Assembly (NCBI RefSeq): GCF_041248615.1
Contig: NZ_CP158426.1
From: Escherichia coli
GTDB taxonomy: Bacteria; Pseudomonadota; Gammaproteobacteria; Enterobacterales; Enterobacteriaceae
DNA length: 64,000 nucleotides
Reading direction: 5' to 3' (one strand)
The translations under genes and the position numbers were made by a program. Under the pieces are notes generated by a model. That model did no database searches. It saw nothing but the letters and a program-made list of their open reading frames with translations, and had not been told where the DNA came from. The first letter of the stretch is position 1. Every line of letters begins with the position of its first letter. Of this stretch, positions 10,508-57,187 are shown one piece after another.

Positions 10508-12753
<2,246 letters not shown>

Positions 12754-26424: not shown

Positions 26425-27247
26425 GCATAGCCTCCAGTTGGCGAATTGTTTCGTTTAGCGTCCCCTTCATCTCTTCTGTGAGGCGTAAGTGATGAGAATT
26501 ACTGAGTTGCTCGAGACACGGCACCCCCTGCCCTTTAATGCTATCGAGAATGACCACTCTCGGTCTGGCCTCAGCTGGCAGGACAGGTTTAACTACATTC
26601 AACAAGCCCTCAATATCATCGCCCTTCACTGTCACGACATCAAAACCGAAAGCCCGGAATTTTCCTTCCAAATCAAATGGATTAATAATTTCATCCAGTT
26701 GACCATCAAGCTGCTGTTTGTTCCAGTCCACAAACACAGTGAGGTTATTCAAACGATGATGCGCGATAAACTGGAAAGCTTCCCAACATTGGCCTTCATT
26801 AAGTTCGCCATCGCCGACAATACAAAAAACCCGATTCTTGCGCCCCGCCAGTTTATGCGACAGCGCCATCCCTCCGGCAATGGATATCCCCTGCCCCAGC
26901 GATCCTGTGGTGCTATCAACACCACACGTTTTTAGCCGATCCGGATGACTTGGTAAGCGGGTTCCGTTCTGATTTAAGGTGCTTAATTCTTCCAGTGGAA
27001 AGTAGCCTTTCAGCGCCAGAGTACTGTAGAGAGCAGGTCCGGCATGTCCTTTGGACAGGATAAAATAGTCACGCTCAGGCCAGTCGGGAGCAGCAGGATC
27101 AATTTTCATTACAGCGCCATAAAGCACTGCCAGCGTTTCCACAACCGACATGCTGCCACCATAATGACCGAAGCCGAGATGAGTTAATGATTTAAGCGTC
27201 TGGATACGTATATCCCGTGCAAATTGAGTCAATTCTTTAACATTCAT
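26417..27247 (-). CDS. Transketolase, N-terminal subunit (thiamine-diphosphate binding)
   Basis: 276 aa with GHAGPALY and GDGE...G thiamine-diphosphate motifs. Confidence 0.85.
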   Translation of the reverse strand: MNVKELTQFARDIRIQTLKSLTHLGFGHYGGSMSVVETLAVLYGAVMKIDPAAPDWPERDYFILSKGHAGPALYSTLALKGYFPLEELSTLNQNGTRLPSHPDRLKTCGVDSTTGSLGQGISIAGGMALSHKLAGRKNRVFCIVGDGELNEGQCWEAFQFIAHHRLNNLTVFVDWNKQQLDGQLDEIINPFDLEGKFRAFGFDVVTVKGDDIEGLLNVVKPVLPAEARPRVVILDSIKGQGVPCLEQLSNSHHLRLTEEMKGTLNETIRQLEAMHD

Positions 27248-28638
27248 GATTTGGCTCCACTCTTCTTCTGCGCTTTGGCAGCGATTTTGTTACTGGCGAA
27301 AATGTTCCAGGCAACCAGCAGCACAAATAGCGCTACTACAAGTCCGGTGATGGCAAAAGGTGAGAGATAACGTGCCAGGTTTCCGAGGACGATGCCGACA
27401 GCACCAAAATCTGCATCGGAAAAGGTCGTATTAGCAAAGCCTATCGCCCCAAGAACCGGCAATAACAGTACTGGCAGGAAGGTAATCAATAAGCCATTCG
27501 CAAAAGCACCAATCATTGCGCCACGACGTCCCCCCGTAGCGTTACCAAATACGCCAGCAGCCGCCCCGGTAAAAAAGTGAGGAACGACACCCGGAAGAAT
27601 CAACACCAGTTTCATCTGTCCCAACAAAAATAGCCCTACCAGACCGCCAAAAAAGCTAAACAAGAAACCAACTAACACTGCGTTTGGCGCATACGGATAC
27701 ACAACCGGGCAATCGAGGGCCGGACGGGCATTCGGCACCAGCTTTTCTGAAAACCCGGTAAATGCCGGAACTATTTCAGCAAGGATTAAACGCACGCCTT
27801 GCAGAATAATAAATACACCAGCAGCGAAGGTGATGGCCATTATGATGGCGTAGACAAGGTAGTTTTGACCACCACTGAACTGGCTTTCAACGAACTCACG
27901 ACCAGCACTGATCGCCATGATCAGATAAATCACCATCATCGTAAGAGAAATAGAGATGGAACTGTCGCGCAGGAAGCTCAGATTTTTGGGCAAATTCATC
28001 TCTTCGGTGGAGCGGGAACCTTTACCGCACACGCTGCCAATCCAGCCAGAAAGTACATATCCCAGAGTGCCAAAGTGACCAAAAGCAATGTCATCATTCC
28101 CCGTAATACGCTTCATATAGCGTTGTGCTAATGCCGGGAAAAATGCCATCACAAGTCCCAGAATAAGAGAACCGGTAAAGACCAGTGATATACCTTCAAA
28201 ACCAGCCACTGTCAGAATCACACCAATCATGCAGGCCATGTAAAATGTGTGGTGTCCGGTCAGGAAGATATATTTAAGGCGGGTAAAGCGGGCAACAATA
28301 ATATTCGCCACCATACCAAATGCCATAATAAGGGCCGTCGATGCGCCATATTTTTCCAGCGCAATAGAAACAATAGCCTCATTATTCGGAATGATGCCCT
28401 GAATATTAAAGGCATGTTCAAACATACTCCCAAGAGGATTTAACGAACCAACCAAAACAGTGGCACCACCGCCCAGTACAATAAAGCCGAGAATAGTTTT
28501 AATTGTACCTTTAACAACATCTGAAAAAGATTTTTTCTGGGCAACCAGACCAATTAAGGCAATCAAGCCGACCAGTATCGCGGGCACTTTAAGTATATCA
28601 ACAACAAAATTCAGCGTTTCAAGGATAAACATATCCAC
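27244..28638 (-). CDS. PTS ascorbate-family EIIC (UlaA/SgaT-like)
   Basis: 464-aa polytopic membrane protein with UlaA-like organisation; overlaps the transketolase N-subunit start. Confidence 0.85.
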   Translation of the reverse strand: MDMFILETLNFVVDILKVPAILVGLIALIGLVAQKKSFSDVVKGTIKTILGFIVLGGGATVLVGSLNPLGSMFEHAFNIQGIIPNNEAIVSIALEKYGASTALIMAFGMVANIIVARFTRLKYIFLTGHHTFYMACMIGVILTVAGFEGISLVFTGSLILGLVMAFFPALAQRYMKRITGNDDIAFGHFGTLGYVLSGWIGSVCGKGSRSTEEMNLPKNLSFLRDSSISISLTMMVIYLIMAISAGREFVESQFSGGQNYLVYAIIMAITFAAGVFIILQGVRLILAEIVPAFTGFSEKLVPNARPALDCPVVYPYAPNAVLVGFLFSFFGGLVGLFLLGQMKLVLILPGVVPHFFTGAAAGVFGNATGGRRGAMIGAFANGLLITFLPVLLLPVLGAIGFANTTFSDADFGAVGIVLGNLARYLSPFAITGLVVALFVLLVAWNIFASNKIAAKAQKKSGAKS

Positions 28639-28654
28639 CTCGCTTCAATTAAGG

Positions 28655-28927
28655 TTATTGTTTTGCTAACCAGTTACGCAGTTGCGTTTCGAGTTCATTA
28701 ATATCAATGATGTTGTTGATAACCACCAACTGACTTTCCGGTACGCTGGCACTGGCAGCAATATCTTTGGCCATCACAAATAAATCGGCAGCCCCTGGCG
28801 TTGCTGATGAGAGATCGGAATGTTCCACTTCCGCCTCTATATCCATTTTTTTCAGAACTTTTTTAATATTCATTTCGACCATAAAACTACTACCAAGCCC
28901 TGAGCCACAAATAGCCATAATTTTCAT
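28655..28927 (-). CDS. PTS ascorbate-family EIIB
   Basis: MKIMAICGSGLGSS active-site cysteine motif; start chosen at the internal Met (the track ORF has a longer N-terminus); start uncertain. Confidence 0.7.
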   Translation of the reverse strand: MKIMAICGSGLGSSFMVEMNIKKVLKKMDIEAEVEHSDLSSATPGAADLFVMAKDIAASASVPESQLVVINNIIDINELETQLRNWLAKQ

Positions 28928-29005
28928 TATATTCACCATTTTAAGTTGAAGAAGTCCCATCACGCAACGGCGCAATGTTGTGAAAAGACTGAATTTATAA
29001 TGTAA

Positions 29006-29455
29006 TCAGAACCGTGAAATTATCTTTTTTATTTCCTCCACATTGCGAGCCTGATGCAATTCATGTAAATCTTTTTCGCTGGAGAATAACTCAGCCAGTG
29101 CAGATATCATTTCGATATGACTGTGTTTGTCTGGTGCGGCAAGTAAAATGATAACATCTACAGGATCAAATTCCTCTGTATGAAAACTGACACCTTCTTC
29201 AAGTTTTAATAATGATAAACCTAATCCTTTTGCCCCTTCTTCTGGTCGGGCATGCGGCATGGCCAGCCCGGGTGCCAGGACATAATAAGGCCCCAGTTTT
29301 TCATGTTGTGTCTTTATCGCACTGAGATAATCCGTCGTAATTATCTCTGCATCCAGTAACGGTCTGGCACAGATATCTAATGCCTGCTGCCAGGTTGCGG
29401 CATTCTTTCGTAATGCGATTGTTGAATCAGAAAGCCAGATATTAAGCACTCCCAC
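29006..29455 (-). CDS. PTS EIIA (mannitol/fructose-type fold; ascorbate-family partner)
   Basis: 149 aa with EIIA-2-like histidine region (LAMPHARPE). Confidence 0.75.
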   Translation of the reverse strand: MGVLNIWLSDSTIALRKNAATWQQALDICARPLLDAEIITTDYLSAIKTQHEKLGPYYVLAPGLAMPHARPEEGAKGLGLSLLKLEEGVSFHTEEFDPVDVIILLAAPDKHSHIEMISALAELFSSEKDLHELHQARNVEEIKKIISRF

Positions 29456-29706
29456 CCCCTAATTTCTTATTTATATGACCAGAATGTATTCAAGTAACGA
29501 CGGTATATCTGCGATCAATATCACAAAGATAGCGCTATCAGGAGGTATTGTTCGAATTTGTGATAGCGCTATCAAAATAGATTTCACTGATTAAATCCAG
29601 ACTTATGGCAGATATTAAGAGGTATACTCTGCTACTGGCAGTGCAGGAAGCCGTTGATGATAAGTAATAAAAGATCTCCATATGTAGTCGCTGAGCAGGA
29701 TTTTGT

Positions 29707-30726
29707 ATGGCAATAACCCGAAAACGTCGTAGTACAGGTAAAGTCACTATTGCTGATGTCGCGCAACTCGCGGGAGTTGGCACAATGACTGTATCCAGAG
29801 CGTTACGCACTCCCGAACAAGTTTCAGATAAATTGAGGGAGAAGATTGAAGCCGCAGTTAATGAATTAGGGTATATGCCCAACCTCACTGCAAGCGCACT
29901 GGCATCGGCATCTTCACACACGATCGCAATGGTCGTGCCAAACCTGGCTGAAGCGGGATGCACGGAAATGTTTGCCGGGCTGCAACATGTGCTACAACCA
30001 GCGGGGTATCAAATAATCCTGGCTGAGTCACGCCATCGTCTGGAACAAGAAGAAAAACTGCTGGAAACCCTGCTGGCTTCTAATATCGCTGCAGCAATTT
30101 TGCTTAGTGTTGAGCATAATAGTACCGTGCGTCACTTGCTCAAAAATGCCTCGATTCCTGTTATAGAAATCGGTGCCATTCGTACTGATCCGATAGATAT
30201 CAACATTGGTATTGATAATGTTGCAGCAATGTTCGAGCTGACGGATATGCTGGTACAACGTGGTTATCAGAATATCGGTTTGCTATGCGCTAACCAGGAA
30301 CAGTGGATCTTTCAGCAGCATTTACAGGGATGGTATAAAGCTATGTTACGCCATCATATGTCTCCCAACCGTGTTATTAACGCTGCTCTGCCACCTGTTT
30401 TTTCCACCGGAGCATCACAACTACCGGAATTTTTGCTCGCATGGCCGGAACTGGATGCCCTGGTATGTGTGTCAGATGAGTTAGCCTGCGGTGTTCTCTA
30501 TGAATGTCAACGAAGACGGATCAAAGTTCCAGACGAGCTCGCCGTAGTAGGATTTGGTGACAGTGACGTCAGCAAAGTTTGCCAACCATCATTAACAACA
30601 ATGGCCGTTCCTCACAGGAAAATTGGTCTGGAAGCAGGAAATGTTTTGCTGGAACGAATTAAAGAAGGTAACTGGAGCAATCAGATATTCATTGAGCCCT
30701 GTTTATGTTTACGTGAAAGCTGCTGA
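29707..30726 (+). CDS. LacI-family transcriptional regulator
   Basis: 339 aa; N-terminal HTH (TIADVAQLAGVGTMTVSRAL) plus periplasmic-binding-protein-like domain; divergent from the PTS/transketolase operon. Confidence 0.85.
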   Translation: MAITRKRRSTGKVTIADVAQLAGVGTMTVSRALRTPEQVSDKLREKIEAAVNELGYMPNLTASALASASSHTIAMVVPNLAEAGCTEMFAGLQHVLQPAGYQIILAESRHRLEQEEKLLETLLASNIAAAILLSVEHNSTVRHLLKNASIPVIEIGAIRTDPIDINIGIDNVAAMFELTDMLVQRGYQNIGLLCANQEQWIFQQHLQGWYKAMLRHHMSPNRVINAALPPVFSTGASQLPEFLLAWPELDALVCVSDELACGVLYECQRRRIKVPDELAVVGFGDSDVSKVCQPSLTTMAVPHRKIGLEAGNVLLERIKEGNWSNQIFIEPCLCLRESC

Positions 30727-31847
30727 AGCTGGGGGACTGGTATCTTTCAGCTCACTGATTTTGTTGCTGAACCTGATATATCCTTCGGTTTTCCACAACC
30801 AGGGGAAGGGTGTCATCATAAGGCGTGATGACACCCTGAATTCCCATCCTGTATCTGCAGAAAATTTTTCGTAAATAAATTAATTTAATAACTAAAAAGA
30901 AAATACAATAAGCAAAATATCAATTACAGAATGTTCGTTTGTTTAAAGAACCTGCTGGTCCTGCCATTAATATTACCTGCTGATTGCTTCACATCCGGAT
31001 TCCTCGCACTGCGCGCGGGTTATTGTTTCGTTTTCGGCCACGGGGTCGCCAGGGCTCTGTTTGCAGGCCATGATGGCCTGACCTGTACTGTTTCTCAGGC
31101 ACTGAGATGTCCGTTTACGCCATTTGTTCCCGGATATCCTTAACCTCTGACGTTTGTTCCCTGCCCCTCTGTCTGATAACGAATACGCTCACAACGCACA
31201 GTACTGAACAATACCGACAACAACATGTCTTACATGAAATTCGCTGTAACATCCACCGGAAAACATTTTCAGATATCGGATGAGGTACTACTTCCATTGA
31301 CAGCGCGAGGTAACAAAATTGATGGTAACTCTGACCATTAACCGTAAACCGCAGGGTATTTTCAGTAAATCACCGGCAACGCCGCTGCAGAATAAAACGG
31401 ACACAGCATACAAAATGAAGGCCGGTGACCAGATACCACAGTTGAACGATAAACAGAAACCTGCTGATAAAACACCGTGGCGACATGACAAAACGCCAGA
31501 GCAAAAACCGTAAGCGCATTATTCGTCTTGTGGAACTCTGGCCTGAGTCATTCAACCGGGAAAAAAACAAAACCACTTAAAGTGGGGATACCTGACGACC
31601 TGATACAGGATATCGCCATCCGAGAACTGGCGTTTGGCGCTGGTACATTACATGCAGCAGTGGCGTCTTATGTGCAGTCTCCGCGCTATTACCGTGCGTT
31701 AATAGCAGGTGGCGCCCGTTACAACCTGAACGGTCAGCCGTGCGGGGAAGTGACACCACAGGAACAGAAAGAGGCAGAGACCCGTTTAATGATGCTGAAT
31801 GACCGACGAAAAGACAGAAAACCTCGTTGACTGCACAACAGCGCTGT

Positions 31848-32444
31848 TCACTGAGCTGTAATCAATGTACAGCGCTGTACCGGGCGATGGGTAATACCGG
31901 TCACAACCGGTAACCCCAGAGACAATGCAACTGTTTTTAACGCAATATACTGGCCGGATGTATCACCCCGGGCAGCCTGAAAACACCTTTCCACCCGGCA
32001 TTGTCCGTCAGCACTTATCACCCGCCATGTCTGTTGCAATAAATCCACCCGTTGCGAACATTCTTCATCAACCGTGGCACTGACCCGTGGATGGCAAATG
32101 CTCGTCTGGCTGAGCAGCAACAGGCATCGCATTGTTGCTCCTCCATGTTGTTCCCGCAACCAGCGTAATACCACCGGTGGTGCTGGACTGGCCGTGTGAT
32201 TACGTTCAGTAATACGCTCGTGCACCTGTCGGTAAAAGGAAGTACAGAATGCATGAATCTGTTGTCCGTTGATGTTTCCTTCTGCCGAATGGAGCGTGAA
32301 GTGAAATGCCAACAGATTTGGCCAGTGGTCCACCGCCTGCTGAACAAAACGCCGGATTTCCCCCGGCGCTGAAAGTAAGGCTTCGGTTATTTGCACTATT
32401 TTATCCCCGTTGAATTTTGTTAAGCCGGTGCAGACCAGACACAC
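31848..32444 (-). CDS. Hypothetical protein downstream of alpA
   Basis: 198-aa ORF, GC-rich, co-oriented with alpA; no family recognised. Confidence 0.35.
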   Translation of the reverse strand: MCLVCTGLTKFNGDKIVQITEALLSAPGEIRRFVQQAVDHWPNLLAFHFTLHSAEGNINGQQIHAFCTSFYRQVHERITERNHTASPAPPVVLRWLREQHGGATMRCLLLLSQTSICHPRVSATVDEECSQRVDLLQQTWRVISADGQCRVERCFQAARGDTSGQYIALKTVALSLGLPVVTGITHRPVQRCTLITAQ

Positions 32445-32673
32445 GGAAAGCGCACATCGACACCGGCACGGTACGATACAAACACCAGTGACTGGCGGGA
32501 CGAAGGGAATGACGAATCAGTCAGGAAATGATGACAAACAGTTGGCTGGCCAGAGGGTGCCAGCAGAAAGATGAGCGGGAGTTGTCAGCGCCAGCACCAG
32601 GGACAGGGCTGATTTCCACAATACCAGCGCCGGCATTTCGCACATTGCCAGCGTACTGGCATTACAACACGTT

Positions 32674-32907
32674 TCATGCTGCTGCTCCTCGTGATTCCTC
32701 AATTCGCTGCTGCATCCACTGCTCCACTTCACTTTTGTACCAGCGGCTGCTGCGCCCCAGTTTGATGGGTTTAGGGAAATGACCTTCACTGATCAGCTTG
32801 TAAAACCATTTATCGGTCATACCGGTGAAACTGGTGATGTAGTTCATGTCGATCAGGGGATCGTCGGCACGCAGCAATACGCTGTCGTGGCTTGTTGTGG
32901 TCAACAT
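32674..32907 (-). CDS. AlpA-family phage/island transcriptional regulator (excisionase-like HTH)
   Basis: C-terminal ...FPKPIKLGRSSRWYKSEVEQWM typical of AlpA/MerR-type island regulators. Confidence 0.7.
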   Translation of the reverse strand: MLTTTSHDSVLLRADDPLIDMNYITSFTGMTDKWFYKLISEGHFPKPIKLGRSSRWYKSEVEQWMQQRIEESRGAAA

Positions 32908-32930
32908 GGTCAGAATGTCCTTTGTGAGAT

Positions 32931-33581
32931 TTATGAAGGTTGTGCAAATGCGGGGGAATCTGCTGAACTGTGCTTTCTGAGCTGGCCTGCTACGGGATAC
33001 CAGGGATTACCGGCGAGGTAACGGGCTTCCGGATCGCGCACACCACGACGATCGCGGGCGAAATCACTGAACGCCCATATCAACTCTTTGAGGATGTCTT
33101 CGCAGTCCGGTGAACGACTGTCCAGCACCACATCCCGTGTTATCTGTTTCTGGTACGGTGCCGCTTCACCCGGTGACGCGAAGCCCAGTACGTTGCTCCA
33201 GGCATCCAGAATCAGCCGGTCCAGTTCAGGGCCATCGAAATACTCCTGTCTGACGCACAGCACCACGTGGTATTCCGGCTTTTCAGGATGACGGGTTAGG
33301 ATCCAGCAGAGATCACGTCCGGGGGTTGCATTCATCAGCGCACTGACGGTTTCGATAAAATCCATGCCTAACCAGGTCTTTCTGCAACTGAAGGCGTTGT
33401 CATGTTCCCACGGCAGACGAAGCAGGATCCGCCGTACCCGGGAGCAGGACTGTTCACGCAGCGCACGATTGAGAACGCCGACGATTTTGTTCTGATAAGA
33501 TGGCCAGAAGGGTGCCATGCTATAGTCGAAATAAGGGATAGCATTCATAAGATATGCTCCATATGGAAACACACGACGCAT
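32931..33581 (-). CDS. YfjJ/YagK-family (inovirus Gp2-like) protein, paralog 2
   Basis: 216 aa with YHVVL HUH-like motif; adjacent to alpA and to the paralog. Confidence 0.55.
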   Translation of the reverse strand: MRRVFPYGAYLMNAIPYFDYSMAPFWPSYQNKIVGVLNRALREQSCSRVRRILLRLPWEHDNAFSCRKTWLGMDFIETVSALMNATPGRDLCWILTRHPEKPEYHVVLCVRQEYFDGPELDRLILDAWSNVLGFASPGEAAPYQKQITRDVVLDSRSPDCEDILKELIWAFSDFARDRRGVRDPEARYLAGNPWYPVAGQLRKHSSADSPAFAQPS

Positions 33582-46265: not shown

Positions 46266-46609
46266 TCCCGTTACCTTCCGGGACCAAAATTTGGCTGGTT
46301 GCCGGTATCACCGATATGAGAAATGGCTTCAACGGCCTGGCTGCGAAAGTACAGACGGCGCTGAAAGACGATCCCATATCCGGCCATGTTTTCATTTTCC
46401 GGGGCCGCAGCGGCAGTCAGGTTAAACTGCTGTGGTCCACCGGTGACGGGCTGTGCCTCCTGACCAAGCGGCTGGAGCGTGGGCGCTTCGCCTGGCCGTC
46501 AGCCCGTGATGGCAAAGTGTTCCTTACGCAGGCGCAGCTGGCGATGCTGCTGGAAGGTATCGACTGGCGACAGCCTAAGCGGCTGCTGACCTCCCTGACC
46601 ATGCTGTAA
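46262..46609 (+). CDS. IS66-family OrfB (TnpB)
   Basis: 115-aa ORF, paralogous to 48328-48678; overlaps orfA by 4 bp. Confidence 0.75.
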   Translation: MIPLPSGTKIWLVAGITDMRNGFNGLAAKVQTALKDDPISGHVFIFRGRSGSQVKLLWSTGDGLCLLTKRLERGRFAWPSARDGKVFLTQAQLAMLLEGIDWRQPKRLLTSLTML

Positions 46610-46704
46610 ATCTCTTTATCCTGGTTGTCACAGAATAAGCCCGGTAAAATACGGGCTTATGAACGACATCTCTTGTAAGCGTCAACGGAGCACCGTATTG
46701 ACGC

Positions 46705-48297
46705 TTATTTATTGGTGAGTACTACGTTCCATGGCAGGAGTTCGTCAACACAGTTGGAGGGCCATTCCGGCAGTACGCTCAGAATATGGCGCAGATACGC
46801 TTCCGGATCGATACCGTTCAGACGGCAGGTGCCGATCAGCCCGTACAGCAGTGCTCCACGCTCGCCGCCGTGATCGCTACCGAAGAACACGTAATTTTTC
46901 TTTCCGAGACAGACTGCACGAAGCGCTCTTTCCGCTGTGTTATTGTCCGCTTCTGCCAAACCATCATCACTGTAATAACAGAGGGCGTCCCACTGATTCA
47001 GTACATAGCTGAACGCTTCGCCCAGTCTGGATTTTTTCGACAGCGTGCCATTCTTCTCCACCATCCATTCATGCAGCGACGTCAGTAACGCTTTGCTTCG
47101 CTGCTGCCTGGCTGCAAGACGCTCTGACTCTGGTAATCCCCGTATTTCATCCTCGATGGCGTACAGTTCACTGATTCGCTTCAGGGCTTCTTCTGCCGTC
47201 GCACTTTTGCTGCTGATGTATACATCGTGGATTTTTCGCCGGGCATGGGCCCAGCACGCAACTTCTGTCAGTGCACCACCTTCACGTTCTGCACTGAACA
47301 ACCTGTCGTAACCTGTGAACGCATCCGCCTGCAGGATACCCCGGAAGGGGCGAAGGTGTTGCTCCGGGTGTTTCCCCTGCCGGTTCGGCGAGTACGCGAA
47401 CCAGACCGCTGGAGGAGATGACGAACCCACATTGCGATCATCCCGGACATACGTCCAGATACACCCTGTTTTCGCCTTTTTCTGACCCGGTGCCAGTACC
47501 TTTACCGGTGTGTCATCAGTGTGAACCTTGCGGGTATTCATTACATAACGGTACAGGGCATCATTCACCGGTGTCATTAACTGGCAGCACGCGTCAACCC
47601 AGTTGGAGAGTAAGGCCCGGCTCAGTTCGACACCCTGGCGGGCAAAGATTTCACTCTGACGATACAGTGGCAGATGTTCGCAGTATTTTCCCGTTAACAC
47701 GCGGGCAAGTAATCCGGGGCCCGCGATACCACGCTCTATCGGGCGGGACGGCGCCGGTGCTTCAACAATACAGTCACATTTTGTACAGGCTTTTTTTACC
47801 CGTTCTGTGCGGATCACTTTCAGGGCACTGCTCACCAGTTCCAGCTGTTCAGCGCTGACTTCCCCCAGATAATCCAGCTCACCGCCACACTCCGGGCAAC
47901 AGCTTTCTTCTGGCTCCAGGCGGTGTATTTCACGGGGAAGGTGTGCCGGTAACGGACGACGATGGCGCGACTGTCGCAACTGGCGGGGAACCTGAGGATC
48001 GTCTTCCCGCCCACTGTAACGATCGCTGTCCTGTTCACGTTGTTTCAGCAGAGCCTCAGCCAGTTCAACTTCACGACGCAGTTTTTCAGAACGGGTACCG
48101 AACAGCATCCGGTGCAGTTTTTCTATCTGAGCCCGCAGATGTTCTATTTCCCGTTCATCTTCTTCGATCTTTTCTTCGGCACGTGCCAGTGCAGAGCGCA
48201 GGAAGGCCTCCGTCTCTTCAACCAGACTCAGTTGCTGGTCTTTCTGACGGAGCTGGCTTTCCAGTTCTGCAATGCGAATGAGGTATTTCTGACTCAT
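46705..48297 (-). CDS. IS66-family transposase OrfC (TnpC)
   Basis: 530 aa; N-terminal leucine zipper/coiled coil, CPECGG zinc-finger motif, DDE core. Confidence 0.85.
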   Translation of the reverse strand: MSQKYLIRIAELESQLRQKDQQLSLVEETEAFLRSALARAEEKIEEDEREIEHLRAQIEKLHRMLFGTRSEKLRREVELAEALLKQREQDSDRYSGREDDPQVPRQLRQSRHRRPLPAHLPREIHRLEPEESCCPECGGELDYLGEVSAEQLELVSSALKVIRTERVKKACTKCDCIVEAPAPSRPIERGIAGPGLLARVLTGKYCEHLPLYRQSEIFARQGVELSRALLSNWVDACCQLMTPVNDALYRYVMNTRKVHTDDTPVKVLAPGQKKAKTGCIWTYVRDDRNVGSSSPPAVWFAYSPNRQGKHPEQHLRPFRGILQADAFTGYDRLFSAEREGGALTEVACWAHARRKIHDVYISSKSATAEEALKRISELYAIEDEIRGLPESERLAARQQRSKALLTSLHEWMVEKNGTLSKKSRLGEAFSYVLNQWDALCYYSDDGLAEADNNTAERALRAVCLGKKNYVFFGSDHGGERGALLYGLIGTCRLNGIDPEAYLRHILSVLPEWPSNCVDELLPWNVVLTNK

Positions 48298-48327
48298 GGC
48301 CGTTTTTATAATGCGGCCAGGCGTTTT

Positions 48328-48678
48328 TTACAACATTGTCAGTGCGTTAAGGCGGAATGTTTTTGGCTGACGCCAGTCCAGCTTATCGAGGAGCATTGCC
48401 AGTTGCGAGCGGGTAATGGATACCTTGCCGTCACGTACCGCAGGCCAGATAAACTGGCCTTCCTCCAGGCGTTTGGTGAACAGGCACAGACCATCAGCAT
48501 CAGCCCAAAGAATTTTAACGGTGTCACCCCGTCGGCCACGGAAGATAAACAGGTGACCGGAGAAGGGATTATCATTCAGCACATGTTGTACCTGTTCTCC
48601 CAGTCCGTTGAAGGATTTACGCATATCGGTAACGCCGGCAACGAGCCAGATACGGGTACCTGATGGGAGTGAGATCAT
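48328..48678 (-). CDS. IS66-family OrfB (TnpB)
   Basis: 116 aa, typical IS66 OrfB. Confidence 0.8.
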   Translation of the reverse strand: MISLPSGTRIWLVAGVTDMRKSFNGLGEQVQHVLNDNPFSGHLFIFRGRRGDTVKILWADADGLCLFTKRLEEGQFIWPAVRDGKVSITRSQLAMLLDKLDWRQPKTFRLNALTML

Positions 48679-49100
48679 CTTCCCCTCCCGGTCAGTTCAC
48701 GGATCAACACCGTGAGCAGCTCTGGCGATGGATTTTCCAGCGTCATGTTACCGTGACGGAATTCCACCTTGCAGGAACTGGCACTGACTCTGGTCTGAGT
48801 GGAAGTGGATAAAGACGGCGCAATGGCCGCCACAGGTTCTTTCTGCTCATCCGGCGTTATTTCTACAGGTAATAATTCAACGCCAGTGTCAGAAGAGGTC
48901 GTTACCGGAAGACGCCGCGAAACACGCCCTTCGTTCTGCCAGAGCCTGAGCCATTTGAAAATAACATTATCATTGACGCCATTTTCACGTGCAATCTGTG
49001 CAACACAAGCTCCAGGTTGTGATGCCAGTTCCACCATACGAAGTTTGAATTCATTCGAATAGTTTTTACGAGGTTCTTTTCGCCAGTCCTGTAATTCCAT
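48675..49100 (-). CDS. IS66-family OrfA (TnpA)
   Basis: 141 aa, typical IS66 OrfA; overlaps orfB by 4 bp. Confidence 0.8.
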   Translation of the reverse strand: MELQDWRKEPRKNYSNEFKLRMVELASQPGACVAQIARENGVNDNVIFKWLRLWQNEGRVSRRLPVTTSSDTGVELLPVEITPDEQKEPVAAIAPSLSTSTQTRVSASSCKVEFRHGNMTLENPSPELLTVLIRELTGRGR

Positions 49101-49269
49101 ACTTAGATGTCCGTCTATATCAGATGGGCGTCTAAGTTACCAATTCTCGTCTGATGGCTACATACGGCGGTCAGTTTACGCTTACCTTTATCCCGACAGA
49201 CGACGTATATTTACCAGTAAGGCCAACCCGGTTGCGCCCTTTGAACCAGAAGTCAAACGTCAGGCTGTC

Positions 49270-50421
49270 ATGGCACTCTGTACACGACAAGTATCAGCCA
49301 GTGAAATCGCCAGGCGTATTGGTGTCAGTCGTGCGGTATTGTATAAATGGAAAGATAAAATTATCGGCAACAGTGCTTACCAGACTATGCGTAAACATAA
49401 CGAACCTTCCCTGGAGGCAGAACGCGATGCGTTGCGGGAGGAAGTCGCCCGACTGAATCAGGAAATACGCCGCCGGCAGATGGAGCTGGATATTCTGAAA
49501 AAGGCGGAGGAAATCATAAAAAAAGACCCGGGCATCAGTATCAGTCACCTGAACAACAGAGAGAAAACGAAGATCGCTGATGCCCTGAGACAAACATATC
49601 CCCTGACAGAATTACTGCATGTTCTGGGCCTTGCCCGTAGCAGTTATTTTTATCACCGGGCTGCACTGAAAGCCGGTGATAAATACGCCACGATACGTAC
49701 GATGCTGACAGATATATTTAACAGTAATTACCAGTGTTATGGCTATCGTCGCCTGCATGCGATGCTCAGGCATGAGGGGGGGCGGCTATCAGAAAAGGTT
49801 GTACGCAGACTTATGGTGGAAGAACAGCTTGTCGTCAGCCGTAACCGTCGTCGCCGCTACAGCTCATATTGCGGAGAAATCGGACCGGCTCCGGATAACC
49901 TTATCGCCAGAGATTTTAAGGCGGAGCAACCTAATCAGAAATGGCTGACAGATATCACGGAGTTCCACCTCCCTGCAGGTAAAGTCTGGCTATCATCGGT
50001 GGTGGACTGCTTCGATGGAAAAGTTGTGAGCTGGTCTCTCAGTACACGCCCCGATGCTGAACTGGTCAACACTATGCTGGATAGCGCTGTCGAAACGTTA
50101 AATGCTGGCGAACGACCGGTGATACACAGTGACAGAGGTGGGCATTATCGCTGGTCAGGCTGGCTGGAAAGAGTGAATGCAGAAGGTCTTATTCGCTCAA
50201 TGTCCCGCAAAGGATGTTCACCTGATAATGCGGCATGCGAAGGCTTTTTCGGCAGACTGAAAACGGAAATGTATCATGGGCGTAAATGGTCGGGCATCAC
50301 GCCAGAAAAGTTCATGCAGCAAGTGGATACTTACATCAGATGGTATAACGAGCGGCGTATAAAATTATCGCCGGGTGCAGTCAGCCCCAAAATGTACCGC
50401 CAACAATGCGGGCTGGAATGA
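49270..50421 (+). CDS. IS3-family transposase (fused OrfAB-type; 5' end abutted by the IS66-family element)
   Basis: HTH N-terminus, DDE core and C-terminal SPDNAACEGFFGRLKTE motif; the frame is open upstream into the IS66 terminal repeat, implying 5' truncation. Confidence 0.7.
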   Translation: MALCTRQVSASEIARRIGVSRAVLYKWKDKIIGNSAYQTMRKHNEPSLEAERDALREEVARLNQEIRRRQMELDILKKAEEIIKKDPGISISHLNNREKTKIADALRQTYPLTELLHVLGLARSSYFYHRAALKAGDKYATIRTMLTDIFNSNYQCYGYRRLHAMLRHEGGRLSEKVVRRLMVEEQLVVSRNRRRRYSSYCGEIGPAPDNLIARDFKAEQPNQKWLTDITEFHLPAGKVWLSSVVDCFDGKVVSWSLSTRPDAELVNTMLDSAVETLNAGERPVIHSDRGGHYRWSGWLERVNAEGLIRSMSRKGCSPDNAACEGFFGRLKTEMYHGRKWSGITPEKFMQQVDTYIRWYNERRIKLSPGAVSPKMYRQQCGLE

Positions 50422-51312
50422 TAAAGCAGTCCAGGAAATCGTCCGCATCCCCAGAACGGTCAAACATCGTGGCGTTGACAACGGGTTCCTGAGTCCGGTG
50501 AAGCGCCGGTTACTGGAAAATGTTGTGTACGTCATAACAGAAACGGAGAGAAAAACGGCGATGCAAATCAGGCGGAGAAGGGTGTATCAGCGGTTACTGA
50601 AGGTTGACCCGCTGAAGTGCATCCTGTGCGGAGGTCAGATGCGGTTTACGGGGCTGAAGCGGGGCTACCGTCTGGCAGAGCTGGTCATGATGCATGAGCC
50701 ACTGGCACGACAGCGGGTATACAGCTGAGAGCCGCAGAGGGGAAGTTGCGTCCATTTTTTGAGGAATGGAGCAAAAAATCATCACAGATATAAAAAATCA
50801 ATCAATGAAAGCCATTTAATTGCCGGTGCATTGTGGATGCAGTCCTCATGGTACGTAACCAGAGTTGAATAAACATCCATTTTTTTGTGTTTTTTTAACC
50901 TCCCCGGGTTTTTAATTCCTGTCGATTAAAAGTGTTAGATTATTTGGTTAAGAGTTCTCTCGTCCTATTTATTCAGGCGTTATCACGGATATGCAGATCG
51001 CTAAGTCAGTTGTAAGAAAACCAGACAGTGCACATCATTATACCTAGGTCTTCTCTGGAAAAATACTTAGGAATAATTTATGTAAAACAGGTTGTCGTCT
51101 TCATGATTTAAACGCAGTACATATATATACTCTATAATAAATACAGGGAGTATCACGAGACGTCTGGATAAGAGGAATAACCAGAATAAATTGGTAAGGA
51201 ATAAAGACACTTATTTCTATTGAGAAAAAACATTCATCCTGATGTGATTAGTATCAATGAAATAATGTGCTTGTATGGTTGATAAAAAATGCATCACTAA
51301 AGAAAAAACAGT

Positions 51313-54300
51313 ATGAATAAGAATATACGAATTTTACAATTTCTGGTCAGTATACTTTATTCTGTGCAGTCTCATTTTTCTGGTGCGCAAACAATACAAC
51401 TGAATGGTAATGGTATACCTGAAAGTATAACCAGGAGTATTACAGGTGTTGATGGAAACGCGGCGCTTAATATCAGCGTGCCGTATAAAACAAGTTATAC
51501 TCAAAATATACTATCTGTTGAAAGCAGTATTAACATCAAAGGAGGAACAAGCAATACATCAATCGGTGGTGCAGGTGTCTACGGTGAAAACTTTACGCTA
51601 AATAATAATGGTAGTGTTTGGGGAGGAGATGGATATAATGGTGGAATTGCTGTTAGTGGCAACAAAATATCTATAAACAATTACAGAAATGTATATGGGG
51701 GTAATGGTCTTGGTGGCTCAGGAAGTAGCGGAGGTGCAGGGTTAAGCGGGGATGATATTATAGTTGATAATTACAGAAGTATATACGGAGGTGATGATGT
51801 AGGTGGGACAGGTGGTTCCGGTGTAACCGGTAGCAATATTACAGTGCATAATTCCGGAGGAATATTGGGCGGTAATGGCGTAAACGGTGGTGATGGTATT
51901 AATGGTAGTAATCTTTTCATTACTAACGACAACATGATATCTGGAGGATATGGAATAAAACAAGGGGGAGATGCTATTTCTGGAAATCAAATCACTTTGA
52001 ATAATAACGGTATTGTTCAGGGGGGATATGGCCCCGACGGTGGTTGCTCTGTTTATGGAGAAGATATCCATATTAATAATCATGGTAATCTTTCAGGATT
52101 ATATAATAGCCAAAAAGATGCTTATAATACATCAATAATTTTTTCTGGCGGGTATAATTCATTAGATATTTATTCAGATTCTGTGATTAATGGTGATATT
52201 AAACTAGCTAGTATACCTGTTAATGGTACAAATGAATTAATTATTAAAAACATCAATAACGCAACAGCAATTAATGGTGGGCTAATGATTGGGAATGGCT
52301 CATCTGTTTATCTGTCAGGCAAGAACTCCATTTTTAACGGAAATATAAGTATTGATGAAGACGCATCTATGAACCTGTCTGTAGGAAATGCTAATGTTCA
52401 CGCAAATACTATTACATTAAAAAGTGATTCATGGCTTAATATAGACACATCAATTAAGAACTGGACTCAGGACTATTACACATTATTGTCGTCAGACACA
52501 GGTATCTCGATCGCTGATAATAGTCACATTGTACAATACAATGTATTACTGACAGAAGGTGCTGAAAGTTATGTTTATACGTCTTTAAATGACGACGATA
52601 ACAAACTGATATCCATGCTGAGATGGAATAATACAAAAGGGATGGGATATGGAACCTTTAATATAGAAAAAGATGCCACTCTGAACATAGGCGTTTCTCT
52701 TTCCGATAATCTTTCACCTTTATTATATGATGGCTGGGACGGCAAAAGTCTGACAAAATCAGGTAATGGTACTCTTATACTTTCTGCAACAAACAATTAT
52801 ACAGGAAATACAGAGGTTAAATCTGGCGTATTAATTCTTGCTGCACCTGATGCTCTTGGTCGGACTGAGTATTTATATTTATCCCGTGGCGCAGAACTGG
52901 ATATGAATGGGTATCCTCAGACAATAAGCAAACTACTGACGGCTGCAGGCTCTGTGCTGAACATTCATGGCGGAAGTCTGATACTGAATAATGGAGGAGA
53001 ATCTGCAGGTACTATTGCAGGGGATGGTTCTCTGAACATAAATGGGGGAATGCTTGATATAACGGGTAATAATCGTAATTTTTCCGGTGTTTTTACCGTG
53101 AATAAGGGGGCTCATTTGGCTGTATCCACGGCTGATAATCTGGGGACAGCCTTTGTTGATAACTATGGCACATTAACTCTGAACAGTACATCAGCATGGC
53201 AGCTTACCAACAATATCAGTGGTTATGGTAATGTTCGCAAGACGGGAGCAGGTGCACTGAACATTAGCGATAACGCAAAATGGACCGGGATGACAGATAT
53301 TATTCAGGGGACAGTGATACTGGGGAACGCAGATTCACCGGTGATGCTCGGCAGTAACCAGGTCATTGTTGAAGAGCAGGGCAAACTCTCCGGGTTTGGG
53401 GGCGTTGCAGGAAATCTGAGCAATAGTGGTATAGTCGATCTCACTACATATATGCCGGGTAATATACTGACTGTCGGAGGGAATTACACTGGCAGAAATG
53501 GACTTATTCTCCTCCAGACAGAAACAGGTGGTGACAATTCGAAAACAGATCGTCTGGTGATTAAAGGTAATGCCAGTGGCCGTACCCGTGTCGCTGTTAC
53601 TCAGGCCGGTGGTACTGGTGCAGAGACACTTAATGGGATTGAAGTGATTCACGTCAGTGGCAATGCTGATAATGCTGAATTCATTCAGACGGAACGTATT
53701 ACAGCCGGAGCTTATGATTACATACTGAAACGTGGTCAGGGGATTAACAGCACTAACTGGTATCTGATTAGCAGAAAAGACATTCCTGTACCACAACCTG
53801 AAGCTGTACCGGAAAGCCATGATAATAATTTGCGTCCTGAGGCAGGTAGCTATGTTGCCAGTATTGCTGCTGCAAATAATCTGTTTGTAACGAATCTGTA
53901 TGAACGACAGGGACAGGAGTTGTATATCAGCCACATGACAGGAGAAGAAAATGAAGCAGGTATCTGGATGTATAATAAAGGAAAACATAATCGCTGGCGT
54001 GACAACAGTAGTCAGCTGAGAACCCGGGGGAATAGCTACGTTGTGTTAATAGGGGGAGATATAGCTCAGTGGAGCCTGAATGGTACCGATCGCTGGCATA
54101 CAGGTATGATGGCTGGCTATGGTCATAATAATAACAGTACGAATGCCCTGAGCACCGGATACCATTCGGAAGGAAGAATGAATGGATACACAGCGGGTCT
54201 TTATGCAACATGGTATGCCAATGATGAAACACACAATGGTTCTTATCTTGATAGCTGGCTGCAATACAGCTGGTTTGATAATCATATAAATGGAGAACGG

Positions 54301-54810
54301 CTGCCTGCTGAGTCATGGAAGTCAAAAGGGTTTACGGTATCTCTGGAAGCAGGATATTCATGGAAGGCTGGAGAGTTTACCGACAATTACAAGGGAAGTC
54401 ATGAATGGTATGTTCAGCCGCAGCTTCAGGTTGTCCGGATGAATGTAAAATCAGACAAATATCATGAAAGTAACGGAACCAGTATTGAAAATACCGGTAA
54501 CGGAAATATTCTCACCCGCCTGGGAGCAAGAACATGGCTTACCAGCAAAAACGGTAAAAATACGCGGTATGCGGTTCCGTTCAGACCATTTGTGGAGGCA
54601 CACTGGTTGCACAATAGTCGTGTTTTCGGCACCAGTATGAATGGTGTAAGTATATACCAGGATGGTGCGCGTGATATCGGAGAAATAAATGGTGGTGTTG
54701 TGGGAATGATAACACCAGAAGTAGCATTCCGGGCTGATGCAGGCATTCAACTTGGAGAACATGGATACCATAATACATCTGCCATGTTGAGTGTGGAATA
54801 TCGTTTCTGA
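51313..54810 (+). CDS. Classical (type Va) autotransporter with glycine-rich beta-helical passenger domain
   Basis: 1165 aa; signal peptide; long passenger with repeated GG.G..G motifs; C-terminal beta-barrel translocator ending ...SVEYRF; low GC. Confidence 0.85.
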   Translation: MNKNIRILQFLVSILYSVQSHFSGAQTIQLNGNGIPESITRSITGVDGNAALNISVPYKTSYTQNILSVESSINIKGGTSNTSIGGAGVYGENFTLNNNGSVWGGDGYNGGIAVSGNKISINNYRNVYGGNGLGGSGSSGGAGLSGDDIIVDNYRSIYGGDDVGGTGGSGVTGSNITVHNSGGILGGNGVNGGDGINGSNLFITNDNMISGGYGIKQGGDAISGNQITLNNNGIVQGGYGPDGGCSVYGEDIHINNHGNLSGLYNSQKDAYNTSIIFSGGYNSLDIYSDSVINGDIKLASIPVNGTNELIIKNINNATAINGGLMIGNGSSVYLSGKNSIFNGNISIDEDASMNLSVGNANVHANTITLKSDSWLNIDTSIKNWTQDYYTLLSSDTGISIADNSHIVQYNVLLTEGAESYVYTSLNDDDNKLISMLRWNNTKGMGYGTFNIEKDATLNIGVSLSDNLSPLLYDGWDGKSLTKSGNGTLILSATNNYTGNTEVKSGVLILAAPDALGRTEYLYLSRGAELDMNGYPQTISKLLTAAGSVLNIHGGSLILNNGGESAGTIAGDGSLNINGGMLDITGNNRNFSGVFTVNKGAHLAVSTADNLGTAFVDNYGTLTLNSTSAWQLTNNISGYGNVRKTGAGALNISDNAKWTGMTDIIQGTVILGNADSPVMLGSNQVIVEEQGKLSGFGGVAGNLSNSGIVDLTTYMPGNILTVGGNYTGRNGLILLQTETGGDNSKTDRLVIKGNASGRTRVAVTQAGGTGAETLNGIEVIHVSGNADNAEFIQTERITAGAYDYILKRGQGINSTNWYLISRKDIPVPQPEAVPESHDNNLRPEAGSYVASIAAANNLFVTNLYERQGQELYISHMTGEENEAGIWMYNKGKHNRWRDNSSQLRTRGNSYVVLIGGDIAQWSLNGTDRWHTGMMAGYGHNNNSTNALSTGYHSEGRMNGYTAGLYATWYANDETHNGSYLDSWLQYSWFDNHINGERLPAESWKSKGFTVSLEAGYSWKAGEFTDNYKGSHEWYVQPQLQVVRMNVKSDKYHESNGTSIENTGNGNILTRLGARTWLTSKNGKNTRYAVPFRPFVEAHWLHNSRVFGTSMNGVSIYQDGARDIGEINGGVVGMITPEVAFRADAGIQLGEHGYHNTSAMLSVEYRF

Positions 54811-54831
54811 TGTGTCGGTAATGACTCCAAC

Positions 54832-55335
54832 TTATTGATAGTGTTTTATGTTCAGATAATGCCCGATGACTTTGTCATGCAGCTCCACCGATTTTGAGAA
54901 CGACAGCGACTTCCGTCCCAGCCGTGCCAGGTGCTGCCTCAGATTCAGGTTATGCCGCTCAATTCGCTGCGTATATCGCTTGCTGATTACGTGCAGCTTT
55001 CCCTTCAGGCGGGATTCATACAGCGGCCAGCCATCCGTCATCCATATCACCACGTCAAAGGGTGACAGCAGGCTCATAAGACGCCCCAGCATCGCCATAG
55101 TGCGTTCACCGAATACGTGCGCAACAACCGTCTTCCGGAGCCTGTCATACGCGTAAAACAGCCAGCGCTGGCGCGATTTAGCCCCGACATAGCCCCACTG
55201 TTCGTCCATTTCCGCGCAGACGATGACGTCACTGCCCGGCTGTATGCGCGAGGTTACCGACTGCGGCCTGAGTTTTTTAAGTGACGTAAAATCGTGTTGA
55301 GGCCAACGCCCATAATGCGGGCTGTTGCCCGGCAT
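54832..55335 (-). CDS. insB: IS1 InsB
   Basis: 167 aa matching IS1 InsB. Confidence 0.9.
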
Positions 55336-55529
55336 CCAACGCCATTCATGGCCATATCAATGATTTTCTGGTGCGTACCGGGTTGAGAAGCGGTGTAAGT
55401 GAACTGCAGTTGCCATGTTTTACGGCAGTGAGAGCAGAGATAGCGCTGATGTCCGGCGGTGCTTTTGCCGTTACGCACCACCCCGTCAGTAGCTGAACAG
55501 GAGGGACAGCTGATAGAAACAGAAGCCAC
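55254..55529 (-). CDS. insA: IS1 InsA
   Basis: 91 aa matching IS1 InsA ([23 protein letters not shown]...). Confidence 0.9.
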
Positions 55530-56002
55530 TGGAGCACCTCAAAAACACCATCATACACTAAATCAGTAAGTTGGCAGCATCACCCGTTCATTTTCTGAGC
55601 CTGTAAAACATGTGGTGATATAGTCTGAGAGCATAAAAGTTGAGATTCTGTGTATCAAGTCCTGTCTTGGCACCGAATGAATATTGCTTACGAAGCCCCT
55701 TCATGCTTTCCTTGAGAACAATAATTTTATCTTTATGTGAATCTCATTTTTTATAATGATGTCAGATGATTGAAATGCTAAATTATATCTGAATCAACTT
55801 TTCCTTTGCTAAAGGTATAGAAATAACTGCAAGGCTGTATTTTGTAATTGCCAATTTAAAAATGTCAATTTGTTTTTAATTATGTTTTTGTAATAAGTTT
55901 GAAGACACAAAAAAATAATATAATAACAAAAATCCTCCAGCCTTGTAGGCCAGAGGATAAAATACTTAATTGAGGAAAACATCAGGGAAAAGTATTTCTG
56001 AC

Positions 56003-57187
56003 TTAACTTTCCCGGCTGGAGAGTGAATCAATGTAATCAGCGTACCATTGCATCATTTCACGGCGGCCATCGAGATACAGGGCATGATTATAGGTACCCC
56101 TGATGGAATTTTTATCCACATGAGCTAACTGCATTTCAATCCAGGCGGAGTTAAAGCCTTGTTCATGCAGAATTGTACTCATGGTGTGTCTGAAACCATG
56201 CCCTGTGAGTCTTCCCTTATATCCAAGTAATTCAATTACTTGGTTAATGCTTTCCTTACTAATTGGTTTGCGGGGATCATTTCTACCGATAAAGACTAGG
56301 GGATGATGTTTTGAGATTGGTTCAAGCTGCTTAAATAGCATAATAACCTGCTCAGAGAGCGGCACAATATGAGGTCGCTTCATCTTCATTACTTCTGCCG
56401 GGATCTCCCACAATTTTGTCTCAAAATCGATATCTTCCCAGCGTGCAAAACGCAGTTCTTGTGTTCGTACGCCGGTTAACATAATGATCTGAGTAGCTGT
56501 CTTAGTGATTATACTTCCGGTATAACCCGCCAGATCGTTGAGGAAGTGGGGAAGTTCATTAGCAGTAAGAAAGGGAAAATGTACTTTTTTCGGTGTAGCT
56601 AAAGCACTGGCAAGATCGGGGGCTGGGTTATAGTCTGCCCGGCCAGTAACAATTGCATAGCGGAACACCTCACCACAGCGCTGGCGTACCTTGCGCATTT
56701 TCTCCAGAGCTCCACGTTTTTCCATTTTACGCAGTGCTTCCAGTAACTCCATTGGTTTGATTTCGGCAATAGGGCGCTTGCCAATGTAGGGAAAAATGTC
56801 TTTTTCAAAGGTATCAATGATTTCATCACGATAGCGTAATGACCACCGATCGGCTTTTGACTGGTGCCATTCGCGAGCAATAGCCTCGAACGTATTTTTC
56901 AGACTTATTTGCTGCGCGATTTTTTCTTCCTTTTTTGCCTCCCCTGGATCGCCTCCAGCAGCGAGGAGTTTCCTGGCTTCACTGCGTTTCTCGCGAGCAT
57001 CGGCTAGCGTTACATCGGGGTATACGCCAATAGAAAGCATCTTTTCTTTACCAGCAAAGCGGTACTTCATGCGCCAGTATTTAGAACCATTAGTGTTAAT
57101 CAGTAGATACATACCGCCGCCATCAGCAAGCTTATAGGGTTTGTCTTTGGGTTTTGCGGTTTTCACTTTGATATCGGTTAATGCCAT
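56003..57187 (-). CDS. P4-type tyrosine integrase (selC-associated)
   Basis: 394 aa; N-terminal MALTDIKVK...; C-terminal catalytic region with R...HGFRHT...Y; lies 300 bp from the selC 3' end. Confidence 0.9.
   Translation of the reverse strand: MALTDIKVKTAKPKDKPYKLADGGGMYLLINTNGSKYWRMKYRFAGKEKMLSIGVYPDVTLADAREKRSEARKLLAAGGDPGEAKKEEKIAQQISLKNTFEAIAREWHQSKADRWSLRYRDEIIDTFEKDIFPYIGKRPIAEIKPMELLEALRKMEKRGALEKMRKVRQRCGEVFRYAIVTGRADYNPAPDLASALATPKKVHFPFLTANELPHFLNDLAGYTGSIITKTATQIIMLTGVRTQELRFARWEDIDFETKLWEIPAEVMKMKRPHIVPLSEQVIMLFKQLEPISKHHPLVFIGRNDPRKPISKESINQVIELLGYKGRLTGHGFRHTMSTILHEQGFNSAWIEMQLAHVDKNSIRGTYNHALYLDGRREMMQWYADYIDSLSSRES

Follow-up and report, generated by a model that had tools for sequence, protein, structure and literature searches.

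The aatA adhesin gene and its IS1-bounded flank at the selC island of an Escherichia coli chromosome

AatA is an autotransporter adhesin of avian pathogenic Escherichia coli (APEC). Dai et al. described its gene as an open reading frame (ORF) of 3,498 bp that encodes a 124-kDa adhesin, which they found to be 98% identical to its counterpart on pAPEC-O1-ColBM and 99% identical to ECBD_0123 of BL21 and ECB_03531 of REL606 (PMC2944236). They showed that AatA mediates adhesion to chicken DF-1 fibroblasts and that antibody inhibits this adhesion. They also found mobile elements on both sides of aatA, with IS1 among those of the 3' flank. Three flanking variants were typed, variant 1 with a fecI primer, and more than 50% of the aatA-positive strains fitted none of them (PMC2944236).

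Here, we analyzed a 64-kb stretch of E. coli DNA (64,000 nucleotides of contig NZ_CP158426.1), called the window below, in which the ORF at 51313-54810 is followed by an IS1 element and then by the integrase gene of the island at selC. Our results make it very probable that we are dealing with an aatA allele that is intact, can be expressed, and encodes a type Va adhesin, and that the IS1 behind its stop codon is a rearrangement joint to the selC integrase.

The aatA gene and its product

We compared the ORF with the type gene of pAPEC-O1-ColBM (NC_009837.1, 81930-85427). The two are near-identical in sequence and length: both encode 1165 aa, with 65 nt and 31 aa differences (98.1% and 97.3% identity, respectively). 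Three aa separate the protein from that of E. coli B/BL21, and strains LD67-1 and A23 encode exactly the same protein. A 6.8-kb query around aatA and IS1 gave an exact match to the chromosome record of E. coli NRZ14408 (NZ_LT599825.1), in which the window spans 64001-128000. AatA of pAPEC-O1-ColBM and IMT5155 is the subject of Li et al. (2010) and Dai et al. (2010).

Type Va autotransporters have an N-terminal Sec signal peptide, a passenger with an autochaperone and beta-helix repeats, and a C-terminal 12-stranded barrel whose last residue is aromatic. For the barrel, the Pfam Autotransporter beta-domain (PF03797) covered aa 884-1143 of AatA (model positions 1-254 of 255, E 9.6e-35), the NCBIfam model TIGR01414 scored 322.8 bits against a cut-off of 16, and the protein ends in SVEYRF, that is, on phenylalanine. 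The top PDB matches were the AIDA-I translocator 4MEE (E 1.4e-73) and IcsA 5KE1 (E 2.5e-56). In the passenger, Pfam detected the AC_1 autochaperone (aa 717-805, E 6e-24), a PATR repeat (aa 480-508, E 9e-8), a VID domain (aa 377-434), and a Pertactin match (E 8e-7), and TIGR02601 scored 36 bits against a cut-off of 19.85; AC_1, Pertactin, PATR, TIGR02601, and the matches to the IcsA passenger together support an autochaperone and beta-helix repeats. The signal peptide was judged by inspection only: MNKNIRILQFLVSILYSVQSHFSGA, with Q as the next residue, combines basic residues, a hydrophobic core, and a small-x-small cleavage motif. Dai et al. also predicted a signal peptide for the near-identical AatA protein (PMC2944236).

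A first-pass annotation of the window, made from the sequence alone, had described a classical autotransporter of 1165 aa with an intact barrel and a glycine-repeat passenger. The ORF, PF03797, TIGR01414, and 4MEE support the first part of this description, and Gly-rich imperfect repeats at about aa 75-260 support the second. What it missed is that the gene encodes the characterized adhesin AatA, for which insertion sequences (ISs) in the 3' flank, IS1 included, were reported in 2010 (PMC2944236).

The ORF could instead be an undescribed autotransporter or a member of AIDA-I, EhaA, YfaL, or MisL. One database source labels the AatA protein 'EhaA', and the AatA barrel resembles that of AIDA-I. 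However, the named NCBIfam families all scored far below their cut-offs (AIDA-I, 275 against 1200; MisL, 357 against 1297; YfaL(EhaC), 153 against 1459; ECSE_1600, 493 against 2335), and with the high aa identity to the type protein this alternative is extremely improbable. Membership in these four families was rejected, with matches confined to the C-terminal half, and the label 'EhaA' is unsupported because no curated family cut-off was reached. The alignment with autotransporter families that had been proposed as a check led to a known gene. The correct annotation is AatA, not the generic 'autotransporter' or 'EhaA'.

The central passenger, in two segments (52438-52959, aa 376-549; 53308-53784, aa 666-824), showed clear homology to the Shigella IcsA/VirG passenger, including the VID insertion domain. 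A PDB search found no match among solved structures for the Gly-rich N-terminal 260 aa. With an IcsA-like centre and an unmatched Gly-rich N-terminus, the AatA passenger looks modular.

According to what is known of the family, AatA would be exported by Sec, its C-terminal 12-stranded barrel would insert into the outer membrane, and the passenger would thread outward and, starting at the autochaperone segment, fold into a beta-helical adhesin anchored to the cell surface. AatA has been placed in autotransporter 'Group 8' together with IcsA, EhaA, MisL, ShdA, and YfaL, and no host receptor is known (PMC9289746). Adhesion and a contribution to virulence were shown for the near-identical IMT5155 and APEC O1 alleles, and AatA of the present strain may likewise act as a surface adhesin.

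FNR binds the aatA promoter in gel shift and directly activates it, and AatA contributes to virulence (PMC5481319). In our alignment, one substitution and one A-run indel set the window promoter apart from that of APEC O1. The E. coli B promoter has indels across the FNR site, and a 4-nt deletion together with substitutions destroys the motif; the window is of the APEC/plasmid type. A weakly expressed E. coli B-type promoter had been considered for the window aatA and was dropped on this alignment. Dai et al. reported low aatA transcription and undetectable protein in BL21 (PMC2944236), and this weak expression could be due to the destroyed FNR motif of the B allele. Promoter and terminator scans gave counts not above those of shuffled sequence, and were not used except for the int hairpin in Table 1.

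IS1 between aatA and the selC integrase

IS1 is an element of 768 bp with terminal inverted repeats of about 23 bp and the frames insA and insB', and a target-site duplication of 8-9 bp is expected when it has inserted simply. The element behind aatA, assigned to the IS1A family in the source annotation, has the full length, the inverted repeats, and both frames, and its ends are GGTAATGACTCCAACTTATTGAT and ATCAGTAAGTTGGCAGCATCACC. It is the sole IS1 copy in the window, with 1-3 nt differences from other IS1A copies and 73 from IS1F of K-12. We found no target-site duplication: the 9-bp flanks, TGATGTGTC and CGTTCATTT, are unrelated. The first-pass annotation had already placed this IS1 at 54817-55584, 6 bp after the stop and lacking a direct repeat. 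Duplications do accompany simple IS1 insertions at related loci, namely CGGTCACTG in pPKF8 and GGTACCCCT in VTB96816v.

Both flanks were searched for in 5,426 complete E. coli genomes. In IS1-free aatA copies, TGATGTGTC is followed by TTTACATTATAAATATCC, and this native junction occurs in 382 genomes; a search for IS1-less variants of the island had been suggested. On the far side, the window matches the selC island of E. coli B from 7 nt inside the TPR gene (codon 3) through int and selC to yicJ. Positions 55585-57600 align to 27128-25114 of the E. coli B locus (L006) with 99.2% identity, and the TPR gene starts at 27122 there. The E. coli B island genes at 27129-35788 (TPR, LacI, MFS, GH31, and ssb) are absent from the window, and the orientation of aatA relative to int is inverted compared with E. 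coli B. Because the flanks are unrelated, the IS1-free copies continue differently, and aatA is inverted, IS1 joins two sequences that are not neighbours elsewhere. This agrees with the earlier suggestion of an IS1-mediated deletion or rearrangement beside the integrase. A simpler outcome had also been envisaged, namely a known allele of an established autotransporter with the same flanks in IS1-free strains; the first half of it is correct, but IS1-free strains do not have the same flanks.

It may be argued that IS1 is a plain insertion downstream of aatA whose duplication has mutated away, without any rearrangement. IS1 favours AT-rich DNA, and other strains have independent IS1 insertions at three sites shortly after aatA. 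However, in E. coli B the loci to which the two flanks belong are separated by 10 kb and oppositely oriented, and the IS1-free copies run on into unrelated sequence. The flank and E. coli B comparisons refute this explanation, to which we give almost no credence.

Of the independent insertions, one lies at +132 bp in F467 (L008 5137-5904), where it truncates int, and another at about +200 bp in pPKF8 (L010 5207-5974), where it has the duplication given above. The AT-rich 3' flank of aatA is thus a recurrent IS1 target, or hot spot.

Strain LD67-1 carries an island like the pathogenicity island (PAI) I5155 of IMT5155, whose published gene content matches the LD67-1 locus (PMC4232414). Window positions 45313-55584 are 99.8% identical to LD67-1, which has the same junction of IS1 at aatA+6, followed by ykiE-fecIRABCDE and pgt, and so agrees with flanking variant 1 of Dai et al. 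We found that the LD67-1 IS1 (L003 9505-10272) is a mosaic. Its positions 1-613 equal the IS1A of the window and its positions 642-768 equal IS1F of K-12, which places a crossover between 613 and 642; its flank is the IS1F/ykiE-fecI junction of K-12. Thus, the aatA-linked IS1A has recombined with the fec-linked IS1F, and of the two junctions the one at aatA+6 is the older. The hybrid is direct evidence, at the level of sequence, of partner swapping by recombination inside IS1, and it is a clean example of how one IS copy lets a virulence-associated adhesin module swap its neighbours.

In the window, a cargo of about 45 kb that ends in aatA and closely matches the PAI I5155-like island of LD67-1 is docked at selC, with the IS1A 6 bp after the aatA stop joining it to the selC integrase module. 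The aatA side of this IS1 is an older junction, common to the fecI-linked variant, and the other side cuts the TPR gene at nucleotide 7. The joint may have come from recombination of two IS1 copies or from an event coupled to transposition of the aatA-linked IS1, such as an adjacent deletion, an inversion, or a cointegrate that underwent deletion afterwards. By either route, the E. coli B-type island would have lost its TPR-LacI-MFS-GH31 genes.

For the first route, there is about an even chance that replicative transposition of the aatA-linked IS1A into TPR codon 3 made the junction in a single event, either as an adjacent deletion or inversion inside the island or as a plasmid-chromosome cointegrate that was trimmed later. 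This would fit the single IS1 copy without a duplication, the loss of the intervening B-type genes, and the identical aatA module on plasmids. None of the 5,426 genomes was found to have a simple IS1 insertion already in place at the TPR site, and the right junction, between IS1 and the truncated TPR-int segment, was found in 153 genomes and nearly always together with aatA (140). Against it, the second IS1 copy and the reciprocal junction expected from an inversion or cointegrate were not found, and the IS1 sequence alone gives no distinction from recombination.

Homologous recombination of the aatA-linked IS1A with a second IS1A already present in the TPR gene of the selC island is a real but less probable possibility. 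The hybrid of LD67-1 shows such a route operating at the same IS1, in the same kind of event as for the fecI-linked variant, and IS1 is abundant in E. coli (median about 10 matching places per genome). However, the window IS1 is without a hybrid signature, and the parental TPR::IS1 insertion that this route needs is missing from the genome set. A primary insertion, with IS1 at aatA+6 and duplicated native sequence on its other side, was likewise found in no genome of the set and no plasmid. Chimeric queries for primary insertions joined the IS1 end, TGATGTGTC, and native downstream sequence, or the TPR gene body, CGTTCATTT, and the IS1 start. They gave 12 and 3 high-coverage matches in the complete genomes and 2 in plasmids, all of which were joined-piece artefacts with IS1 at +132 or about +200 or inside int. 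Because no primary or TPR-site insertion was found and the pairing with aatA is near-constant, a transposition-coupled event is slightly favoured over IS1A x IS1A recombination for the selC joint.

Several points weigh against our overall reading of an expressible adhesin gene beside a rearrangement joint. The window IS1 is uniformly IS1A, so it has no internal marker that separates a transposition-coupled deletion from IS1A x IS1A recombination, and a search of the window found neither the reciprocal junction nor native aatA downstream sequence. IS1 displaces the native 3' end of the aatA transcript, with a possible effect on the mRNA, and an intrinsic terminator was predicted neither for the native sequence downstream nor for the spacer that separates the stop from IS1. 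As for the passenger, a single-sequence AlphaFold2 model was all-beta but of low confidence (mean pLDDT 48), and the beta-helix fold of the Gly-rich N-terminal part is proposed by analogy.

Distribution and the surrounding island

We found aatA in 687 of the 5,426 genomes, at 485 chromosomal and 250 plasmid places, and in 232 PLSDB plasmids, some of them from Salmonella and Shigella. The exact AatA protein is recorded on at least 1,000 contigs. The complete aatA-IS1-int-selC arrangement is present in 140 complete genomes, whose sources include chickens, humans, and wastewater. The count of 238 genomes with the +6 junction is an upper bound that includes nearby IS1 insertions. Upstream, window positions 49186-54816 are 99.84% identical to a module of plasmid pPK8275-145kb that consists of an IS3 element, an IS91 remnant, and aatA. 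Most of the island in the window (about 9.2-55.6 kb) matches the PAI I5155-like island of LD67-1, with which it is largely collinear. PAI I5155 of IMT5155 adjoins a tRNA-Phe gene (PMC4232414).

Taken together, IS1A at aatA+6 is probably a portable homology patch by which PAI I5155-like cargo is re-docked between a fec-linked context, the selC integrase, and plasmids. On this account the selC form would be an undescribed fourth flanking variant, which may make up part of the untyped majority of Dai et al.

The GC content of aatA is 41.4% (39.2% in the first 2.1 kb), and its GC content at third codon positions (GC3) is 32.6%. The flanking core has 52% (yicJ GC3, 56%) and the rest of the island 48%, so aatA is markedly AT-rich, as had been noticed. 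The 3.5-kb stretch with the lowest GC content in the window is not aatA but one near 33751 (39.5%). The separate acquisition that had been proposed from this composition is consistent with the plasmid copies, the LD67-1 island, and the two different selC arrangements.

Further IS copies were observed around aatA in other strains. In F467 and A23 (L012 13368-14135 and 23505-24272), inverted IS1 copies lie on both sides of the aatA module, and one of the two truncates setC in A23 and int in F467. Several other genomes with the selC arrangement have an extra IS1, IS1414, or IS3-family element inside aatA or in the interval from aatA to selC. These extra insertions show that the locus is still undergoing IS rearrangement.

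Two copies of ISEc31 (1258 bp, 100% identical, inverted) lie at 10508-11765 and 40982-42239 and bracket a 29-kb segment, which has the opposite orientation in the LD67-1 island. There, the site without the element reads GCCGTTATTACATT, and the two copies in the window split its 3-bp TTA between them. The split TTA and the inverted segment are a signature of IS-mediated inversion.

A second adhesin-type gene of the island, at 23090-24328 on the minus strand, has the YadA C-terminal domain of trimeric autotransporters and adjoins a gene for a sigma-factor-like regulator. Between nepI and yicS, window positions 1-2331 and the sequence further upstream (L014 18189-36332) contain type III secretion translocator and chaperone genes (SycD/LcrH-like, YopB/SseC-like, and IpaD/SipD-like), and the same locus carries eilA and iatC, which encodes an inverse autotransporter and is very large (11.1 kb). 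This locus may resemble the eip/eilA/air locus described in enteroaggregative E. coli 042, which is associated with E. coli type III secretion system 2 (ETT2). The features of the aatA-selC region are listed in Table 1.

Table 1. Features of the aatA-IS1-selC region (window coordinates; aa positions refer to AatA)
Feature	Position	Strand	Remarks
Truncated IS3-family element	49186-50421	+	Upstream part of mobile aatA module; annotation transferred
IS91 transposase remnant	50483-50728	+	Upstream part of mobile aatA module; annotation transferred
aatA upstream region, APEC promoter type	51067-51312	+	Homology with every aatA context examined begins at 51067
Reported FNR site TTGAGAAAAAACAT	51220-51233		79 nt before aatA ATG; motif match
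aatA coding sequence	51313-54810	+	ATG start, 1165 aa, APEC autotransporter adhesin A
AatA signal peptide	~aa 1-25	+	Judged by inspection
AatA Gly-rich repeats	~aa 75-260 (51535-52092)	+	Imperfect repeats; best autocorrelation lag 25 aa
AatA IcsA-like VID/PATR region	aa 376-549 (52438-52959)	+	5KE1 homology and Pfam
AatA autochaperone	aa 717-805 (53461-53727)	+	AC_1
AatA beta-barrel	aa 884-1165 (53962-54807)	+	Pfam, NCBIfam, and PDB matches
6-bp spacer TGTGTC	54811-54816		Between aatA TGA stop and IS1; last native sequence before break
IS1, IS1A type, 768 bp	54817-55584	-	Right inverted repeat (IRR) end towards aatA, left (IRL) end towards int
insA	55529-55254	-	Intact
insB' frame	55335-54832	-	Intact
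selC-island int-TPR intergenic remnant	55585-56002	-	Includes first 7 nt (ATGAACG) of TPR-protein gene at 55585-55591
Terminator-like hairpin for int	55932-55958	-	Hairpin scan
selC-island tyrosine recombinase (integrase)	56003-57187	-	Intact, 394 aa
tRNA-Sec (selC)	57487-57581	-	Attachment site of island

Comparison with described systems

Earlier papers already cover aatA, including its function, its mobile nature, and the many ISs of its flanks. The finding is real, correctly described, and ordinary. We found no paper that describes the selC-IS1 flank of aatA. This flank adds at most a fourth variant to the three typed by Dai et al., and carries little weight beyond annotation.

AIDA-I and IcsA/VirG are more distant relatives. 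The barrel and linker of AatA are homologous to those of AIDA-I (4MEE), and the two central passenger segments share homology with the passenger and autochaperone of IcsA (5KE1, 3ML3). However, AatA did not reach the curated AIDA-I score, and its N-terminal Gly-rich region matches neither protein.

AatA of pAPEC-O1-ColBM and IMT5155 is much closer. It shares with the window the gene of 3,498 bp and 1165 aa and a promoter region with an FNR site at -79, and the IS3/IS91-remnant context upstream is like that of the plasmid-borne and LD67-1 copies. Most of the 31 substitutions that separate the window protein from APEC O1 are in the barrel. The known copies are on the ColBM plasmid or in PAI I5155, whereas the window gene is chromosomal at selC. 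As 3' partner of IS1, the window has the selC integrase and the PAI I5155 type has fecI.

The copy in E. coli B (ECB_03531/ECBD_0123), which is flanking variant 2 of Dai et al., is like the window in its position in a selC island with an integrase 99.2% identical. In contrast, it has no IS1, keeps the native downstream sequence, lies in the opposite orientation to int at the setC end of the island, and has lost the FNR motif.

Flanking variant 1 (aatA-IS1-fecI) is identical to the window from at least 6 kb upstream of aatA to position 613 of IS1, including the +6 junction. The two differ from there on: IS1 of variant 1 ends in 127 bp of IS1F and gives way to ykiE-fecI as in K-12, whereas the element of the window is IS1A over its full length and leads into the truncated TPR gene, int, and selC.

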